From sequence record KY608965.1: DNA of 64,000 nucleotides; one strand, 5' to 3'. Both the position numbers and the translations under genes were made by a program. Positions within the stretch are counted from its first letter, which is position 1. Every line of letters starts with the position of its first letter. The DNA is from Escherichia phage phiEC1. Of this stretch, positions 11,656 to 39,733 are shown piece after piece. The notes beneath the pieces are model-generated. The model had not been told where the DNA came from. It searched no databases and was given only the letters and a program-made list of their open reading frames with translations.

Positions 11656-12756
11656 TTACGCTGTGAAGATTTTATCCCACATCGCAACAACTGCATCTCG
11701 GTTATACTTCTTCCATACTGCTTCAGCACGTTTAACTCGAGCTTCGTATGTGTCAGTGAATTCTAATACAGCTTTTGTGTAAAGCGCAACTACTTCTTTC
11801 TTAGGAGTAGAGGAATCAATTTCTACACGCACAGTATCTGGGTCATATTCGAATGTCGCGTGCGGATAATCCTTAAAAACTAACTGAATCACAGGGACAC
11901 CTTTAGAGATGGCTTCAATAGAACTATTCTCTACCGTACCCGTGTCAGGACACGTATTGATAAGTGCTTTAGCTGTTTTAAGACGTTCCATGATTTCACT
12001 GTGTGGAGCATCAATAATAACAGGATATTTAGCTGGTGGTGCCCATTTACTAGGACAGTATCCTGCGCCATTTTCGCCTAGTGCTTTAATCGCTTCAAGA
12101 GCAACATCAGTACGACGCATTTTAGTGTCATAACGTTGTGCACTAATAATCAGATCAGTCGCCGGAAGAACTTCAGGTTTCTCATTCAAACAAATAACCG
12201 GATAATCTTCGGCTTCAAACAACGGATTTGCTCGCCAATAATCATAATCAATTTTGTCAGTCAGACCTGAAGTCATATAACAATATTTACGTTCAAATTC
12301 ACGGAAGGCTTTAGTAGGAGCATAGCTCTTACCACCATTCTTATGAATTTGAATAGTCTGGTCCCAAATTTGAACAATGCCACGAGATACCGGTTCAAAT
12401 GGTGTTGCCATAAAATTCTTATGAACTTTAGAGAGACCTGCGTCTTTAATTGCCTGAACGGTTAGTTTAGTCGGTTCCATAGTAACAACAAAATCGTATT
12501 CATGGATGCCGGCTAGTTCAACAATCTTACGAGCCATAGTATAACTCATACCTAGACTGAATTTAGTCAGATGACCAACAGGATGATGATTAACCTTCCA
12601 ATCACCAAATGTGTCATTATCAAAACCGATATAATCAATATCAGCACCGATGGACACAAGATATTTCAACACATTTAAATGTACTGCTTCAAGACCACCT
12701 TGTACACGTTCTGGGTTAAATGGGACCGCACGAGATGGGATAAACATAACTTTCAT
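11656..12756 (-). CDS. GT-B fold glycosyltransferase (GT4-like); candidate DNA hydroxymethylcytosine glycosyl(arabinosyl)transferase
   Basis: 366 aa; N-terminal MKVMFIPS...GGLEAVHLNVLKYL and C-terminal E.SSIEAISKGVPVIQ resemble the GT4 donor-binding region; located between rIIA and gene 39 where T4 has 60/mobA. Confidence 0.6.
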   Translation of the reverse strand: MKVMFIPSRAVPFNPERVQGGLEAVHLNVLKYLVSIGADIDYIGFDNDTFGDWKVNHHPVGHLTKFSLGMSYTMARKIVELAGIHEYDFVVTMEPTKLTVQAIKDAGLSKVHKNFMATPFEPVSRGIVQIWDQTIQIHKNGGKSYAPTKAFREFERKYCYMTSGLTDKIDYDYWRANPLFEAEDYPVICLNEKPEVLPATDLIISAQRYDTKMRRTDVALEAIKALGENGAGYCPSKWAPPAKYPVIIDAPHSEIMERLKTAKALINTCPDTGTVENSSIEAISKGVPVIQLVFKDYPHATFEYDPDTVRVEIDSSTPKKEVVALYTKAVLEFTDTYEARVKRAEAVWKKYNRDAVVAMWDKIFTA

Positions 12757-33183: not shown

Positions 33184-33732
33184 TTAACGAGCCCATTTGA
33201 TAATTTCTGTAATCAAATTATTACGTTCGCTTGCATTAAATCCTATAACTTTGTTAGCACCATCATGATTAAGTAATTGATACGTTTGGATTTTGTTATG
33301 AATTGCAAACTCTTCAAAATGTGAAATGACTGTATTAAAACCGAATGAAGACAAAGTAATAAGGTCGTCTTCAAAACTTTCAGTCATTTCATTACGTGTT
33401 AAAATAATTGTGAACACATCATGGTTTTGGCAAAGACGAACATAATCCTGTTCATAAACATCAAGAACCGAGTCCGCATCTTGTCGAATACGTCCATAAA
33501 CCCAGTTACTAATATATCCACGGTCTAACAGATAAATCTTAGTAGGGTCTAAATAATTCAACATCGTTTCGAAACAGCCAACTTCATTTCGAGACTTAAC
33601 ATCGAAACGTCCATCAACTGTTCGTTTAGGGAAATCAATCTTTACATATCTTTCACTAATTTCCATTATGTCATTAATGAAAGTTGTTTTACCGGCATTA
33701 TCCGGGCCGTCTACTAAAATAATTTTAGCCAT
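33184..33732 (-). CDS. P-loop kinase (thymidylate kinase-like fold)
   Basis: 182 aa; Walker A VDGPDNAGKTT and LLDRGYIS (DRY-like) motif; occupies the beta-gt interval of the T4 map. Confidence 0.5.
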   Translation of the reverse strand: MAKIILVDGPDNAGKTTFINDIMEISERYVKIDFPKRTVDGRFDVKSRNEVGCFETMLNYLDPTKIYLLDRGYISNWVYGRIRQDADSVLDVYEQDYVRLCQNHDVFTIILTRNEMTESFEDDLITLSSFGFNTVISHFEEFAIHNKIQTYQLLNHDGANKVIGFNASERNNLITEIIKWAR

Positions 33733-33733
33733 T

Positions 33734-34633
33734 TTATTCCTCGATTACGACATCTTCGTATTTAGGTATATTATACGGCGAAGAAATTAAAGCATTAAAG
33801 TAGATGAACTCACCAAGACCTGGATGGAATACTTCTTCAGGATTTTCGAAATATTGAATCTTCGGACGTCCTTTAAGAATTTGATAGTACTCAGTTTTAG
33901 TTGGATTAAAAATTCGAATCAGCGCTTCTTCAGGATACTTATTTCTGTCGAAGCTATTATTTGGATCGGTTATATAAAGCGGTTGACCTAATTGAATTGC
34001 GCATTCAACCACTTGTTCAAAACGATAACACGGGTCACTAATTCGAAATGGATGAAAAATACCATCTAGATGAATAGGAGCCAAATCACCTACAAGACGC
34101 TGCATGACGGAAGGACGTATAACTTTCTGCGTTACGATAATCTTATTACCATCGGCACCTGCGTTAACCAGCACTTCCTTTTGACGTTCATTCAACACAG
34201 TAGTTTGAAGTGAACGATTAACAGACAACATGTCGGTTTTTAAGAATTCATCAATATAAAAACGTGGTTTATTAGGGTCTGCAGTGATATTGAAATTGAA
34301 TTCTACGTCAAAAGCGCCATCATATCCAGTGATATCTGTGATTAGAAAATCACAATCATAATAAGCAATTAATGAATCAACCACAAATTCATTTTCAGAC
34401 CAAAAATATTTACGAGTGTTATATGCGTTATCTTTATACCATAATGGAACAAACTTAAATTCCGGGAAAAGACGTTCACATTCTTTAATATCAGATGCAT
34501 TACGTGGATATGTAATCACATCACCTGGATTAGCACGGTGCAAATGAAGTTGGAAGTTGCCATCCTTAAGGATAGCATACTGTCCAGTTTCATAAGACCG
34601 CATACTCAAGATAGGTACGCGGAAAATAGCCAT
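33734..34633 (-). CDS. hypothetical protein (299 aa) in the beta-gt interval
   Basis: ATG start; TAATG coupling to the gene 42-like ORF; no similarity to T4 beta-glucosyltransferase recognised. Confidence 0.5.
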   Translation of the reverse strand: MAIFRVPILSMRSYETGQYAILKDGNFQLHLHRANPGDVITYPRNASDIKECERLFPEFKFVPLWYKDNAYNTRKYFWSENEFVVDSLIAYYDCDFLITDITGYDGAFDVEFNFNITADPNKPRFYIDEFLKTDMLSVNRSLQTTVLNERQKEVLVNAGADGNKIIVTQKVIRPSVMQRLVGDLAPIHLDGIFHPFRISDPCYRFEQVVECAIQLGQPLYITDPNNSFDRNKYPEEALIRIFNPTKTEYYQILKGRPKIQYFENPEEVFHPGLGEFIYFNALISSPYNIPKYEDVVIEE

Positions 34634-35349
34634 TAGTCAAGGAATCCTTTAACATAATCAAAATCACGTTCAAACACATGGGCACTTACCATGGTATGAG
34701 TATAATCACCAACTTCTACACCGCATTCGTTAGCGATATAATGAAGTAATTTTCCTTGGAGATAAAAATCCAACTGCATAACAACAGCACAGTTCTGAGA
34801 ACGCATATGGCAGTGGGTATAAAGCTTACCATCACGAATATAATAAGTCACTGAGTCAGTACATGGATATTCAAGTGTTTCGTCCGAATCAAGCAAAGCC
34901 TGATCAGAACTTTCTAGAATTTGGAACACAACTCTTCGAGAGTTAGGTTTCTCTTTAAGTTCTTTTAGAAGAGCTGGTAATTGGGCCACAATGCGAGGAC
35001 CATAGAAAGTGTTGAAGTTCGCAGGCAAAGCATCTGATTTTGGTTTAGAAATGAATTTAGCGACATTAGGATATGCCTTAAACGCTTCTTCTGCATCAGT
35101 ACCACCAGAAATCATAAACTTCCAGAAGTCTTCGGCATATTCATAAGAGATGCGGTTAATACGTGGGTCGGTCATTTTGAACGATGATGGATTGTCAACA
35201 ACTACTGTCATGGACCCGATTTCATTACAACGTCCAATACGAGAATCAGTTACGAATTCCGGGTTTTCTAAAATTTCACGATTGACTGCTTTAAATGCGG
35301 TTTGAAAATCTGCGGCTTTGATATATTTCATTGTGTTATGTTTTCCCAT
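34633..35349 (-). CDS. 42: thymidylate synthase-family pyrimidine C5-modifying enzyme, probable dCMP hydroxymethylase
   Basis: 238 aa; NSRR, YPCT (Pro-Cys nucleophile), HMRSQ and IANECGVEVGDYTHT motifs of the ThyA/dCMP hydroxymethylase fold; Asp (not Asn) in the MQLDFY region suggests cytosine specificity. Confidence 0.55.
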   Translation of the reverse strand: MGKHNTMKYIKAADFQTAFKAVNREILENPEFVTDSRIGRCNEIGSMTVVVDNPSSFKMTDPRINRISYEYAEDFWKFMISGGTDAEEAFKAYPNVAKFISKPKSDALPANFNTFYGPRIVAQLPALLKELKEKPNSRRVVFQILESSDQALLDSDETLEYPCTDSVTYYIRDGKLYTHCHMRSQNCAVVMQLDFYLQGKLLHYIANECGVEVGDYTHTMVSAHVFERDFDYVKGFLD

Positions 35350-35391: not shown

Positions 35392-35631
35392 TTATTTGAA
35401 TTTCTTGGCAATGTTGATATAACGTAAAGCTTCAGAATCTATACTTCCAAGAACACTATGAAGAAATGCATCAGCGTAGTATTCCAATTGAACAGGTTCT
35501 TTAATCACTTTAGCCGCTTTGGTTTCAAACAGGCCCATCAGGGCCTTTTTAAGAATTTGTTCATTAGTGTTCAGTTTTATAGTCAAAATCTCTTCATTAA
35601 GTTGGTGGTTAAAAGTTTTTCTAGAAATCAT
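35392..35631 (-). CDS. hypothetical protein (79 aa)
   Basis: ATG start; ATGA coupling to the upstream ORF. Confidence 0.45.
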   Translation of the reverse strand: MISRKTFNHQLNEEILTIKLNTNEQILKKALMGLFETKAAKVIKEPVQLEYYADAFLHSVLGSIDSEALRYINIAKKFK

Positions 35632-36797
35632 TCCGGGTACCTCAAAGCGTCATCAGAGTTAGTTATATCAATAATAGATATAGAGTTTTCTGATAACCCA
35701 TTTTTAGATAACTGACGTTTATAATATCTTTCACAATATGTACACGTCGTCCCGCAGATTTCATTAGCACAATCGAAATCTGGATGTCTGAACCACCTTT
35801 TTTCTAAAAAGCCATCTAACAAAGAGGTTTCAATATTTACTGTATGTGAAAACTCAGTTTCGTTTTCAAGAGTGAAAATAGTCTCTAAAGGCTTCCACAG
35901 TTCTAACAAATTACCTTCAAACTTTTCAGAAGCGTATGCTTCAAGAACTTTCAAAATGTAGTCTGTGCTACCTGTACGTCCTGAAACTTTGAATTGAGTG
36001 ATACCAATATCATTATAAAGTTTCAAATCTTGAGGACGAACAAAACGAGTTCTCAACCAGTTAAATGGGTCTGTATCACGAGCTTTAATACAGTGCTGCA
36101 TAGGATATCCGTTTAAGGATTTAGCATCATCAGCTGTAACATCAGTACTATGGAAAATATAGCAAGAGTCACGATAGCTACAATGTGTTGTATACCCTTT
36201 ACCAGCATTAGAACAGAACTCATTTACAAGAACTTCAAATATTATATTGTTCTTATTGCAAAACTCTGCTGCACGCTTCAGGAAAGAAACTGAACGGTTC
36301 TTATGAATTCCGCAACAGACTTTTTTGATGTTATATTGGTCGTGCAAGTATTTGATTTGAGTTACGGCATCAACATGTAGAATTGTTGAAACTTCAATCT
36401 CAATATCTTTATTGACTTCACGAACAATTTCCATAACAACAGGGTTAGCGATAGTAATACGCCATACGCCTATTGACCAAAGATACTGAACATAATCCTG
36501 AATAGCTTTCTTCTTCCACTCAACTAGTTCTCTTTTTGAACCAGGATTTATCGTGTTGAGTGTATAGTTAAAGCAAATACCTAATTCGTTACAACGTTTA
36601 ACGTAGTCTTCTAACATCTTTTTGTCAACGTCAGGAAGCCTAAAATCAGGTCTGGCTGCTACAAAAGCCATTTCTCTTGTAGAGCCATATACTTCGTTTA
36701 TCAAGCTATTAGGATAGGTTTTATTGAGCTCTACGATTTTATCAAGAAGAGCTAAATCAAAATTCGTTCCGATTTTAAAAGTATTCATTTTTTGCAT
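35628..36797 (-). CDS. Cys-rich enzyme of unknown family (389 aa; possible TIM-barrel sugar isomerase/epimerase-like or U32-like Fe-S protein)
   Basis: N-terminal FKIGTNFD...; C-terminal cluster DFDCANEICGTTCTYCERYY; family assignment is tentative. Confidence 0.35.
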   Translation of the reverse strand: MQKMNTFKIGTNFDLALLDKIVELNKTYPNSLINEVYGSTREMAFVAARPDFRLPDVDKKMLEDYVKRCNELGICFNYTLNTINPGSKRELVEWKKKAIQDYVQYLWSIGVWRITIANPVVMEIVREVNKDIEIEVSTILHVDAVTQIKYLHDQYNIKKVCCGIHKNRSVSFLKRAAEFCNKNNIIFEVLVNEFCSNAGKGYTTHCSYRDSCYIFHSTDVTADDAKSLNGYPMQHCIKARDTDPFNWLRTRFVRPQDLKLYNDIGITQFKVSGRTGSTDYILKVLEAYASEKFEGNLLELWKPLETIFTLENETEFSHTVNIETSLLDGFLEKRWFRHPDFDCANEICGTTCTYCERYYKRQLSKNGLSENSISIIDITNSDDALRYPE

Positions 36798-36844
36798 CTC
36801 GCGTTAATTGATGCGATGGTTTTTTGCAGGTCTTACTTAAATTA

Positions 36845-37231
36845 TTATAGATTCGGTTTATATGATTTAAATGTTTCGAATTCGCCTTTATTCATAAGAG
36901 CTTTGAATTCGTCAGGACGCATAGCTTTGTCGTCGATAATCCAATCATATACTGGTTTATGTGTTAGCAAATTATGATACTTCAAACCAATGTTTTCCAA
37001 GTTCTGAATCAGACTTGGGAGAATGTCAATTGCTATACGTCCAGGACCTACTGACTTCATACCGCGTGCAGTATAAAGCGTTATAGTATGCCCTGCATCA
37101 TACAGGGCATTAATGGCGGTCACCATTTCGACGTCTGGTTTGAAGTTCACATAATCACGATTGTTATTCCACTCTGTTATACAATCATCGACATCAAAAC
37201 AAAGATTAAGCATGTTTTCTACACGGTGCAT
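36845..37231 (-). CDS. HAD-superfamily phosphatase
   Basis: Start set to ATG at 37231 (TAATG coupling); HAD motif I FDVDDCI near the N-terminus and a C-terminal DD pair. Confidence 0.55.
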   Translation of the reverse strand: MHRVENMLNLCFDVDDCITEWNNNRDYVNFKPDVEMVTAINALYDAGHTITLYTARGMKSVGPGRIAIDILPSLIQNLENIGLKYHNLLTHKPVYDWIIDDKAMRPDEFKALMNKGEFETFKSYKPNL

Positions 37232-38916
37232 TAGATTCGTTCCCATTGATGAGTGATATCGCCACCGATTGGACGATAGGAAACACCAGTTTCTTTATCA
37301 GTTAGTACCCATTTACCAGGATTTTTTGTAATCAGAGTAGCCGTTACAGGTTCTGCTACGTCATAACTAATAGAGCCGTCTTGAAGTACACGGCCCATGT
37401 TACGTAATTGCTTAGTCAGAAGTTCCATACCTTTATAATATGCGGCAACCGCTTTAAGTGGATTATTCTTGAAATAACCACCTAATGCAATCCAAATAAT
37501 TGCTACAGCCAAATGATGATACTCGTTAAACGAACTCATCTTTCCATATTTGTAAACTAATGGATTGATGTTAATAGTCACATTACAAGTTGTTTCATCA
37601 ATAGTAAACTGTCCCCAGGTCGGATTAGCATTGAATTCATCATAACCTGAAACAGCATAAAGCACTTTAGCTTCATCATACAATTTTGGCCCGTAAATCT
37701 TGGTTTCACCAAAATATCCACGAGGGTCGATAAACTTGACTTCGCCGTTATCAGTAATCATAGTATTACTGAAGTTTGGGTCACCGTGAATAACAGAGTA
37801 CTGTCCCTGAGAACGGTTATGATAACGAATAAGATGTTCTAAAGCTTGTTTCAACATTGGCTTCAGACGTCCAATCTTAGTGTAGTTCACGTGTGTGATT
37901 TTACCAAATGAATCAATCAATGGCTGAATGCTTTCACAACGATCAATAACTTTCGTATAGAACTCTTTAGTGAAATCACGGCGAACAGTTTCAGGACTTA
38001 CAAAATAAGTGTCTGTGCTGAATTTCAGTGCATCTAAAATTGCATCAACAATTTGTGGACGAGCAAGACTTGATTTGGATTTAATATATTCAAATGCCGG
38101 CTTACCTTTAATACGTTCCATTTCAAAATTATTTTCATTTACCGAAACTAACTGAGGAACTGAATCTGATTTCACTTTCAAATACCATGAAATCTCATCT
38201 TTTTGAAGAGCTCGACCTTGTTCGGTTAACGCGAATTTAGTTACAGTTTCTTCGCCAATTTCAACTGCATTAAAACTACGATTAAGTTCACGAACTTCAT
38301 GAGCTTTTTCAAGTTTAGGCATATCACCTAAATCAATTAGATTCATAAGCTCTGATTTATTGAATGCACTGCCGTAAAGGAATTCTACGAAATCACGTCC
38401 TTTGCAGTATTCGTGAATTTCCTCGTCAGTAGAACCCATGTAGAATTCCCAGTCTTTGAACTGATAAATTCCTACAACATTACCGCCTGTTGAACCTACG
38501 TTAGTGATATTTTCACCATCGAAATTATATCGACATTCATCACCCTTAACATAGATTGCGTTAACATTCCAAGACCATGAACCAAAATCAGGAATAATAT
38601 CACACCAGTTAACAATTACATTATGGCCATCTAAATCTTTGTATAATTTAGCAAGAGCATAAGCAGAACCATACGCTTCATCAACTGTACGAATAGTCAC
38701 ATTGAACCCTTCTTGCTCACAATAAGCTCGAACAGTTTCAGCAAATTTTGAATGAACTACTACAATAATTTCATCTGCGCCAAGGTCAGAATAAATTGTA
38801 TACAAATTGCTCAGAATAGTGTCTTGCTTATAGTTCACAAGAACTTTTGGAATATGGTGAGTAATTGGATATAAACGAGTTGCCAATCCAGCACCAAGAA
38901 TAACAGCTTTTTTCAT
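37231..38916 (-). CDS. bifunctional sugar-1-phosphate nucleotidyltransferase (RmlA/MurU-like, N-terminal) / anomeric sugar kinase (APH/AmgK-like, C-terminal)
   Basis: 561 aa; N-terminal KAVILGAGLATRLYPIT (G-x-G-T-R-x-x-P-x-T nucleotidyltransferase signature); C-terminal HGDPNFSN and FIDPRG kinase catalytic-loop motifs. Confidence 0.65.
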   Translation of the reverse strand: MKKAVILGAGLATRLYPITHHIPKVLVNYKQDTILSNLYTIYSDLGADEIIVVVHSKFAETVRAYCEQEGFNVTIRTVDEAYGSAYALAKLYKDLDGHNVIVNWCDIIPDFGSWSWNVNAIYVKGDECRYNFDGENITNVGSTGGNVVGIYQFKDWEFYMGSTDEEIHEYCKGRDFVEFLYGSAFNKSELMNLIDLGDMPKLEKAHEVRELNRSFNAVEIGEETVTKFALTEQGRALQKDEISWYLKVKSDSVPQLVSVNENNFEMERIKGKPAFEYIKSKSSLARPQIVDAILDALKFSTDTYFVSPETVRRDFTKEFYTKVIDRCESIQPLIDSFGKITHVNYTKIGRLKPMLKQALEHLIRYHNRSQGQYSVIHGDPNFSNTMITDNGEVKFIDPRGYFGETKIYGPKLYDEAKVLYAVSGYDEFNANPTWGQFTIDETTCNVTININPLVYKYGKMSSFNEYHHLAVAIIWIALGGYFKNNPLKAVAAYYKGMELLTKQLRNMGRVLQDGSISYDVAEPVTATLITKNPGKWVLTDKETGVSYRPIGGDITHQWERI

Positions 38917-38957
38917 GTTGAAGTCCTCATTGGTAAGTAGGTGTATTGTACACTATT

Positions 38958-39101
38958 CTAGTTAAAGCATTCATACTTTGCTTGTAGTCCAATCATAATC
39001 CATCCAATTACAAGTGTTGGAATCATTACTGGAGCCGTTAAGCTCCAGTAGATAGTCATGACAAGCATCAATAGTAAAAGTCCTATTGTTATTGCTTTCA
39101 T
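38958..39101 (-). CDS. small membrane peptide (47 aa)
   Basis: ATGA-coupled to the SIS gene stop; single hydrophobic helix; below track cutoff. Confidence 0.35.
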   Translation of the reverse strand: MKAITIGLLLLMLVMTIYWSLTAPVMIPTLVIGWIMIGLQAKYECFN

Positions 39102-39733
39102 TGTTCGCCTCGTAACATGGCACCTAGTGCACCGCCTGGATGGAACTTAAGGAAGTCATTAGAGGTAAATCCACGTTCAGACGAAAGGTTGATAGCAAAC
39201 GTATCGATAAGCGCTAACAACAATGTAGTGGACATGGTCGGAGCCAGAGAATTCTCGTCAACCTCTACCGCGATACCGGTACAGAACGTATAATCAAAAA
39301 GAGCTTCGTATTCTTGCGGAATGTCAGGGTTACAATGTAACAGAATCTGTTTAACCTGAGGACGAATCATACGAAGATGTTTAGCAACACCTATCATTTC
39401 TTCAGTCTTACCAGAACGACTGATGTGAACTAATACATCATTGGGTGCAATAAATCCTGCATCCCCATGAGAATAATGCCCAGTGTTCAAGTACATACTC
39501 GGGATACCGAGTGAAGCAAAAGTCTCTGAAGCTTTAGTTGCGATATTAGCGTTCTTACCAACACCTGTAATAATTACACGACTTTCATAATTACTCAGTC
39601 CAGGGCGACGAAGAGTTTCAAGAATAACATTATATCGGGCAGAGTTTTGACTAATTACTTTAGCCATAGTGGCAAGAGATGAAGCTTGTTTTACGATTGC
39701 GTCAATAGCGATAGTGATTGGTGTAGTTTTCAT
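39098..39733 (-). CDS. SIS-domain sugar-phosphate isomerase (arabinose-5-phosphate isomerase KdsD/GutQ-like catalytic domain, no CBS domains)
   Basis: 211 aa; ITGVGKNANIA, HGDAGFIAP, ISRSGKTEE, LAPTMSTT and HPGGALG motifs characteristic of KdsD-type SIS domains. Confidence 0.7.
   Translation of the reverse strand: MKTTPITIAIDAIVKQASSLATMAKVISQNSARYNVILETLRRPGLSNYESRVIITGVGKNANIATKASETFASLGIPSMYLNTGHYSHGDAGFIAPNDVLVHISRSGKTEEMIGVAKHLRMIRPQVKQILLHCNPDIPQEYEALFDYTFCTGIAVEVDENSLAPTMSTTLLLALIDTFAINLSSERGFTSNDFLKFHPGGALGAMLRGEQ

Follow-up and report, generated by a model that had tools for sequence, protein, structure and literature searches.

What does a T-even phage make with the genes that fill positions 35392-39733 of the window analyzed here, a stretch of 64,000 nucleotides from Escherichia phage phiEC1 (KY608965.1), and in particular what is the role of the Cys-rich, 389 amino acid (aa) protein of the Peptidase_U32 family (hereafter U32) that is encoded among them (35628..36797, minus strand)? 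An earlier note on this DNA had read the cassette as a route from ribulose-5-phosphate via arabinose-5-phosphate to an NDP-arabinose donor for DNA glycosylation, with the 389-aa protein as a possible epimerase. The cassette is the already published UDP-D-arabinofuranose route, so that the sugar route adds nothing new, and what keeps the cassette of interest is the U32 gene, about whose role a comparison of genomes leads to a hypothesis that is specific and can be tested. We consider it very probable that the sugar route is the published one and, jointly, that U32 acts in the step that makes the acceptor base, most probably as a second, O2-independent hydroxylase. The narrower proposition, by which U32 and the viral family of about 450 clusters to which it belongs depend on prephenate, and not on O2, to hydroxylate deoxypyrimidine nucleotides or DNA at C5, is one that we would put at even chances.

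The source phage is a Mosigvirus (RB69-like T-even phages), as both the DNA polymerase and the 35392-39733 interval match Mosigvirus phages, the best match having 97.9% nucleotide identity at 100% query coverage, with 152 phage records covering at least 80% in the nucleotide comparison. Arabinose was reported in RB69 DNA by Thomas 2018, as arabinosyl-hydroxymethylcytosine (arabinosyl-hmC), and the module was named as the likely source of UDP-arabinose (PMC6024577). Lee et al. (NAR 2026, PMC13326640) have since identified the RB69 base as mono- and di-arabinosylated 5-hydroxycytosine, not hmC, with the ether linkage of the sugar to 5-hydroxycytosine established by nuclear magnetic resonance (NMR), mass spectrometry and 18O2. 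As summarized in that paper, He et al. 2026 found the AfhE protein of phage HY126 to be bifunctional, as a kinase for arabinose-5-phosphate and a UDP-arabinose pyrophosphorylase, and AfhF to be a phosphatase, dependent on Mg, by which arabinose-1,5-bisphosphate becomes arabinose-1-phosphate; the order of steps is given there as kinase, then the HAD phosphatase that removes the 5-phosphate, then uridylylation. The RB69 gp45-gp55 and HY126 Afh clusters come from the same genus, with the same gene order and near-identical proteins (9iqw, 9iqc and 9iqz in the PDB, 1e-86 to 2.8e-249), and nothing material distinguishes their sugar route from that of the phiEC1 cassette. Because it has been shown on essentially the same proteins the main function of the cassette is established, and the overall route of the earlier note had thus been published. 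The record of the BASEL-collection phage Bas46 likewise carries the labels 'putative enzyme involved in UDP-arabinose biosynthesis', 'putative phosphatase' and 'putative phosphosugar isomerase'.

The base to which the sugar is attached comes from genes next to the cassette. The thymidylate-synthase homologue at 34633..35349 (minus strand; RB69 gp48) matches Thymidylat_synt at 1.2e-15 (57.8 bits) and PDB entries 9iqc/9ir2 at 8.8e-161, and when aligned to E. coli ThyA its RSQN and LEYPC segments correspond to D169N and to L143E with the catalytic Cys146 kept, while the position of N177D is ambiguous in this alignment. RB69 gp48 makes 5-hydroxy-dCMP with flavin, the oxygen coming from 18O2 (PMC13326640), and by analogy the product of 34633..35349 is taken to be a flavin- and O2-dependent 5-hydroxy-dCMP synthase, not a hydroxymethylase. 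A nucleotide kinase at 33184..33732 (minus strand; RB69 gp45) matches the thymidylate kinases of PHROG 761 at 2.2e-45, and in the loci examined such a gene always co-occurs with a gene for a glycosyltransferase like the 299-aa protein at 33734..34633 (minus strand; RB69 gp46:47). This open reading frame (ORF) lies at the map position of T4 beta-gt, where the earlier note had recognized no glucosyltransferase homologue, and it has a two-Rossmann GT-B fold; its identity is visible from the fold alone, as it has no Pfam or PDB sequence match, its family aligns to T4 beta-gt with an hhalign probability of 0.1%, and a profile comparison with the 366-aa enzyme at 11656..12756 (minus strand; RB69 ORF003c/gp3 homologue) gives no signal. 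The latter matches 9iqz/9ir0, 'phage HY126 glycosyltransferase', at 2.8e-249. It has been proposed that the 299-aa-type enzyme (alpha) would add the first arabinose to 5-hydroxycytosine and the 11656-12756-type enzyme the second (PMC13326640). The layout is that of T4 gene 42 (dCMP hydroxymethylase) and beta-glucosyltransferase, with the 42-homologue, the glycosyltransferase and then uvsX at the same map positions, and so is the logic of a pre-replicative base change followed by glycosylation. What differs from T4 is that the phage enzyme hydroxylates rather than hydroxymethylates, that no similarity between the sequences of the glycosyltransferase and beta-gt can be detected, and that the sugar donor is made by the phage rather than taken as UDP-glucose from the host.

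The 389-aa protein (RB69 gp50) does contain 13 Cys, but it belongs to the U32 family and not to the epimerases, with a Peptidase_U32 (PF01136) match of 7.4e-11 (42.2 bits against a cut-off of 22.4). An AlphaFold2 (AF2) model with a pLDDT of 88.6 is a TIM barrel, and its best match among solved structures is the U32 protein 5d88 (E 6.5e-8, TM 0.70 on the target), the next-best fold matches including methylenetetrahydrofolate reductases; by sequence, the PDB returned nothing at E<=1. In a profile search, 452 clusters reach E<=1e-30 and make up a separate family whose members typically have 340-390 aa, and in 122 representatives C195, C206 and C236 are invariant (100%), position 212 is Cys (60%) or His (39%), and a C-terminal CX4CX3CX2C is kept at 94-96%. 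U32 proteins bind a 4Fe-4S cluster through four conserved Cys, canonically spaced CX6CX15CX3/4C (PMC6747719); the phage pattern is C195-x10-C206-x5-C212-x23-C236, a difference in spacing that is also seen in UbiU and UbiV. Alignment with the E. coli paralogues by hhalign, using single-sequence templates and expressing only a weak preference, gives probabilities of 80% for RlhA, 11% for TrhP, 3% for UbiU and 0.4% for UbiV, and in the RlhA alignment of 197 columns C206 and C212 fall on RlhA's CX6C. No curated equivalog model is reached, the sole NCBIfam match being to UbiU with 18.4 bits against a cut-off of 440.

U32 proteins have been connected with hydroxylation that is O2-independent, with prephenate as oxygen donor (PMC10990095, PMC6599085, PMC5727448). 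RlhA (ho5C2501 of 23S rRNA), TrhP (ho5U34 of tRNA) and UbiU-UbiV (ubiquinone) share with the phage protein the Peptidase_U32 domain and TIM barrel, as well as conserved Cys positions that overlap the Fe-S motif of the family, and RlhA makes a C5-hydroxylated cytosine, which matches the product proposed here. The phage protein differs from them in forming a subfamily of its own, with an extra C-terminal CX4CX3CX2C and another Cys spacing, and in its presumed substrate, a deoxynucleotide or DNA.

In order to place U32 among its neighbors we labeled 90 loci, 55 after removal of duplicates, that had been collected by three independent sampling routes, through homologues of U32, of the synthase and of the 299-aa glycosyltransferase, and that extend about 10 kb to each side. 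The glycosyltransferase-kinase pair is accompanied by the synthase alone in 16 of the 55 loci, by U32 alone in 26 and by both in 13, and the U32-only set has no contig in common with the synthase scan. The genes for arabinose follow a different pattern. Acinetobacter phages (DLP1; 57 records with the fused enzyme) have the SIS isomerase, the fused enzyme and the HAD phosphatase without U32. Escherichia phage Bp7 (a Dhakavirus) has the fused enzyme, HAD, kinase, synthase, glycosyltransferase and imm, with no recognizable SIS and no U32 in its locus, and its arabinose-5-phosphate may come from host KdsD or GutQ. In many uncultured phages whose polymerase is of the PolIII-alpha type, the kinase, a 299-aa-type glycosyltransferase and U32 are present and SIS, fused enzyme and HAD are lacking. 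Because the distribution of U32 is independent of the arabinose genes, an epimerase or sugar-tailoring role is unlikely, and U32 would appear to lie outside the sugar-donor route and to have its place where the acceptor base is made. One U32-only phage (L007:11098-16179) has two TAGT-like glycosyltransferases and a UDP-galactopyranose mutase in place of the arabinose genes, which suggests that its DNA contains a galactofuranosylated hydroxypyrimidine.

The neighbors of U32 also point to its cosubstrate. In 10 of the 13 distinct loci with both U32 and synthase, all but one of which are T4-like, the gene directly after U32 encodes a chorismate mutase on its own (36-47 bits for Pfam CM_2, where the cut-off is 27), and chorismate mutase is absent from all 16 loci that lack U32. 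In five non-T4 U32-only loci (L029, L040, L042, L045 and L003) a 3-deoxy-D-arabino-heptulosonate 7-phosphate (DAH7P) synthase, alone or fused to chorismate mutase, adjoins U32 or lies within a few hundred bases of it. The enzyme stands alone immediately downstream of U32 in L003 and L029, where it is the same DAH7P synthase, and fusions with an N-terminal DAH7P synthase and a C-terminal chorismate mutase are found a few hundred bases upstream of U32 at L040:8411-9433, L042:7302-8357, L045:8332-9387 and L041:3-971. The same order of domains occurs in Porphyromonas and Prevotella, which would hint at obligately anaerobic hosts for the phages with the fusion. That these DAHP-synthase-family neighbors are instead 3-deoxy-D-manno-octulosonate (Kdo) 8-phosphate synthases, which use arabinose-5-phosphate, was considered and rejected, with scores of 125-237 bits for the DAH7P models against 30-67 for KDO8P. 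The chorismate mutase linkage points to prephenate, the oxygen donor of RlhA, TrhP and UbiUV. Among the 16 U32-less loci, 7 have a Flavodoxin_2 gene, located in the four full loci examined either directly against the synthase gene or a few genes from it, in keeping with a flavin reductase that the phage provides for its O2-dependent hydroxylase; genes of this type are located immediately upstream of a D169N-type synthase homologue at L095:6739-7293, a few genes off at L094:605-1123, and also in L084-L087, L091 and L092. Judged by these gene neighborhoods each hydroxylase appears to come with its own cosubstrate supply. In some U32-only phages a dCMP deaminase gene directly precedes U32, and the substrate in those phages may therefore be dUMP.

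Taken together, we propose the following pathway, in which the steps to the sugar donor and the flavin/O2 hydroxylation have been shown elsewhere on near-identical proteins. The SIS isomerase would divert ribulose-5-phosphate to D-arabinose-5-phosphate, the kinase half of the fused protein would phosphorylate C1 to give arabinose-1,5-bisphosphate, the HAD phosphatase would take off the 5-phosphate and the nucleotidyltransferase half would produce UDP-arabinofuranose. In parallel, dCTP would be cleaved to dCMP, which would be hydroxylated at C5 along one of two routes, with the flavin/O2 synthase as catalyst or, where oxygen is lacking, with the U32 Fe-S enzyme and prephenate; the resulting 5-hydroxy-dCMP would then be phosphorylated and built into DNA, where 5-hydroxycytosine would be arabinosylated from UDP-arabinofuranose by the 299-aa GT-B enzyme and then by the 366-aa enzyme. 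The U32 route would in this manner let the phage make 5-hydroxycytosine in an anoxic host. By our own estimate there are roughly 6x10^4 cytosines per genome copy, to be multiplied by the burst size, and the stoichiometric demand for prephenate that results would explain why phages encode chorismate mutase and DAH7P synthase.

A pairing of this kind is familiar from E. coli, where TrhO and TrhP (ho5U), and UbiI/H/F and UbiU/V, are in each case a flavin/O2 enzyme and a U32/prephenate enzyme that give the same product and together cover the whole oxygen range (PMC6599085, PMC6747719). The phage pair would differ in that both enzymes are encoded by the virus, for its own DNA, a parallel that we draw from gene distribution only.

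Several observations weigh against a prephenate-dependent hydroxylase. The canonical motif CX6CX15CX3/4C is only partly matched by the phage protein, and no U32 protein has so far been shown to hydroxylate in vitro (PMC10990095). No chorismate mutase is present anywhere in the 64-kb window (best match E 0.04, 9 bits), so that in Mosigvirus the prephenate would have to come from host PheA and TyrA. The loci are phylogenetically related, and since they reach only about 10 kb to either side, the metagenomic phage genomes may have a synthase gene further away. Finally, Dhakavirus infects E. coli and yet is without U32. A strict rule by which U32-less phages have aerobic hosts was accordingly discarded, fitting Acinetobacter and failing for Dhakavirus on E. 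coli.

Other roles for U32 have to be weighed against this proposal. It might be an enzyme that tailors the arabinose donor or the modified base, a reductase of sugars or heterocycles for example, as its label in Table 1 of PMC13326640 would have it and as the TIM barrel, the methylenetetrahydrofolate reductases among the next-best folds and the location inside the cassette would allow. We regard this as unlikely, since the arabinosylating phage DLP3, which is without U32, makes mono- to tri-arabinosyl-5-hydroxycytosine, since U32 is found without any arabinose genes, and since the adjoining chorismate mutase or DAH7P synthase would be left unexplained.

A role as Fe-S redox partner of the synthase-like hydroxylase, for example in passing electrons to its flavin, rather than as a hydroxylase is again improbable in our judgment. 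It would account for the closeness of the U32 and synthase genes, which lie within a few hundred bases of each other in T4-like phages, for the two conserved Cys clusters, and for the Flavodoxin_2 gene that U32-less phages often have beside the synthase, as if in the same role. Against it are the 26 distinct U32 loci in which a homologue of the synthase type is absent within 10 kb, the gene linkage with chorismate mutase and DAH7P synthase that points to the use of prephenate, and the finding that gp48 and its kinase yield 5-hydroxy-dC in E. coli without gp50 (PMC13326640).

Every known nucleic-acid substrate of U32 proteins is RNA (PMC5727448, PMC6599085) and RlhA is the best paralogue match, so that the phage protein could also be thought to hydroxylate tRNA (ho5U34) or rRNA (ho5C) and thereby tune translation in infection, in a manner unrelated to DNA modification. 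We hold this to be quite improbable, as two unrelated phage lineages embed U32 among genes for a DNA glycosyltransferase, dNMP-kinase-like and dCTPase-like proteins, dCMP deaminase and DNA polymerase, and as U32 alternates with the dCMP hydroxylase.

The earlier note taken literally, with dephosphorylation to free arabinose, C1 phosphorylation and nucleotidylation, an hmC acceptor and an epimerase of 389 aa, is very improbable. The set of domains is compatible with its order of steps, which is still the one listed for gp51 and gp52:53 in Table 1 of PMC13326640, and arabinosyl-hmC was the assignment of Thomas 2018 (PMC6024577). The HY126 biochemistry, in the summary that PMC13326640 gives of it, places the kinase before the phosphatase, while the ether-linked 5-hydroxycytosine found by NMR, mass spectrometry and 18O2 (PMC13326640) and the D169N synthase displace the hmC acceptor, and a U32 protein has no epimerase fold. 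A role of the cassette in auxiliary metabolism, for the synthesis of host capsule or lipopolysaccharide (KpsF/Kdo-type) instead of DNA modification, as the database names KpsF, 'capsule biosynthesis phosphatase' and GlmU might imply, is hardly credible in light of the presence of arabinose in virion DNA, the structural and enzymological work on near-identical proteins, the lack of a Kdo-8-P synthase in the cassette and the scoring of DAHP-synthase-family neighbors elsewhere as DAH7P synthases.

Returning to U32 as an O2-independent hydroxylase, its significance lies in the biology of these phages. The arabinosylated cytosine of RB69-like phages blocks restriction enzymes and CRISPR nucleases, and the published hydroxylase needs O2, yet the phages break down dCTP as they replicate in bacteria of the gut. 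If our proposal is true, an O2-independent route would explain how DNA is copied in anoxia and would predict an oxygen-dependent host range for U32-less phages. RB69-like phages would have two interchangeable routes to 5-hydroxycytosine, mirroring TrhO/TrhP and UbiIHF/UbiUV of their hosts, and many uncultured phages would depend on the U32 route alone, with their own DAH7P synthase and chorismate mutase, enzymes that would have to be reinterpreted as a cosubstrate supply for DNA modification. Among U32 hydroxylases it would then be the first with a part in DNA modification, and also the first to come from a virus. Reconstitution in vitro is still to be achieved for any U32 hydroxylase, and a viral one that possibly acts on a simple mononucleotide could provide a tractable model.

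In PMC13326640, RB69 gp50 appears only as a table row ('sugar or heterocycle reductase'), and the discussion calls the pathways of RNA pyrimidine hydroxylation unrelated, with the kinship of gp50 to RlhA and TrhP unmentioned. The Thanatos paper offers no hypothesis for the origin of the hydroxyl and does not discuss that phage's own U32 gene. Our literature search, which did not extend to He et al. 2026 and Mahler et al. 2025, returned no paper that pairs U32 with these phages or with DNA hydroxylation; the idea may already have been tested in one of those two.

The sugar-donor enzymes are recognized in the window, and the earlier note had named all three correctly. The SIS arabinose-5-phosphate isomerase (39098..39733, minus strand, 211 aa; RB69 gp55 homologue) matches Pfam SIS at 8e-10 (39.1 bits against a cut-off of 25), NCBIfam KpsF/GutQ at 8.5e-32 and KdsD at 3.7e-30, and, in the PDB, 3etn at 9.5e-25 and 2xhz at 2e-18; its score is below the equivalog cut-off (105 vs 505). 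Its sequence carries GVGKN, SRSGKTEE and FHPGGALG, which we take to be the GxGK, SxSGxT and C-terminal HPGGALG (with the catalytic His) of the KdsD family. The alignment to the KdsD model covers model positions 47-202 of 328, and in this comparison the tandem CBS domains are absent from the 211-aa protein, which resembles the single-domain 3etn type. With E. coli KdsD/GutQ and the single-domain isomerase of Bacteroides fragilis (2xhz, 3etn) it has in common the SIS fold, the motifs and the conversion of ribulose-5-phosphate to arabinose-5-phosphate, and it differs from KdsD in lacking tandem CBS domains and in a product that feeds a nucleotide-sugar for DNA, not Kdo.

The 561-aa fused protein (37231..38916, minus strand; RB69 gp52:53, HY126 AfhE analogue) matches NTP_transferase of Pfam over residues 3-99 (1.3e-9, 38.4 bits against a cut-off of 21.2), has family matches to MurU, GlmU and RmlA and matches PDB entry 1jyk at 2.4e-5; it reads GAGLATRL, fitting the G-x-G-x-x-x-R-L loop of sugar-1-phosphate nucleotidyltransferases. 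The C-terminal half has weak matches to kinase families at residues 354-409, with sub-threshold Pfam matches over residues 308-409 (Fructosamin_kin 16.9, EcKL 16.2 bits), and reads HGDPNFSN (cf. HxDxxxxN) and IDPRG, and a published fold match of the kinase half is 3ham (PMC13326640). By analogy with HY126 we assign it as an N-terminal sugar-1-phosphate uridylyltransferase and a C-terminal APH/choline-kinase-like arabinose-5-phosphate 1-kinase. An APH/choline-kinase-type kinase and a minimal sugar-1-phosphate nucleotidyltransferase likewise make up the MurU/AmgK pair, from which the phage protein differs in that the activities are fused in one 561-aa chain, nucleotidyltransferase then kinase, and in its pentofuranose substrate. 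The trimming of a sugar bisphosphate by a HAD phosphatase is as in heptose activation of the GmhB type. The Mg-dependent phosphatase itself (36845..37246, minus strand, 133 aa; RB69 gp51, HY126 AfhF) reads FDVDDC, the HAD DxD motif, and matches TIGR01689 (capsule biosynthesis phosphatase) at 2e-13 and 9iqw at 1e-86, an alignment that shows near-identity of residues 5-133, in which two mismatches can be seen. Its true start is likely to be Met6, at 37231.

The 35392-39733 interval is filled by six ORFs, all co-directional on the minus strand, where the earlier note had counted five co-directional and translationally coupled genes. The SIS/47-aa and U32/79-aa junctions are 4-nucleotide (nt) overlaps (ATGA), that of the fused protein with HAD is an overlap of 16 nt or 1 nt, depending on the HAD start, and the remaining three junctions of the cassette are gaps of 41-47 nt; with three overlapping and three gapped, coupling is true only in part. 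The T4 counterpart carries imm, as had been noted, and imm.1 as well. The cassette ORFs, being long and having strong homologues, are far beyond chance. A composition profile of the stretch showed no anomaly, and a scan for promoters and terminators gave matches not above shuffled expectation. A sigma-70-like match at 36844-36871 on the minus strand (TTTAAA, 16 nt, TATAAT, 10/12) lies in the 47-nt gap between HAD and U32; although no commoner than in shuffled sequence, it could be a separate promoter for U32 and the 79-aa ORF.

The hydrophobic 47-aa protein (38958..39101, minus strand) belongs to PHROG 3610 (6.8e-27) and is conserved at this position in T4-like loci; in Bp7 its gene adjoins imm with no SIS gene present, and it is probably unrelated to sugar synthesis. 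The 79-aa ORF (35392..35631, minus strand) has homologues only in a few T4-like genera, and some Mosigvirus copies are shortened to about 50 aa. In most sister genera chorismate mutase occupies the slot after U32 or follows it, and ORFs in the same slot of KLB31 and Virsaitis27 match CM_2 with 38.5 and 44.6 bits. The 79-aa ORF as a diverged AroQ chorismate mutase was rejected, there being no CM_2 match at E<=10, no pairwise similarity and an hhalign probability of 0.2% when compared with the phage chorismate mutases. In Pectobacterium PM2, Yersinia TG1 and others a 79-aa-type ORF is found between U32 and chorismate mutase. The protein might be an accessory factor of U32.

Two further features of the U32 neighborhoods were observed. 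A radical SAM gene, often with SPASM, recurs by the kinase-glycosyltransferase-U32 core of phages with a PolIII-alpha-type polymerase (L009:7972-9000, L010:3138-4166, L098:7980-9011, L002:1314-2249). In Erwinia phage Virsaitis27 (L012:5352-5990) a Seg-like homing endonuclease gene has been inserted between HAD and U32, marking a recombination seam between the genes of the sugar route and the pair of U32 and chorismate mutase.

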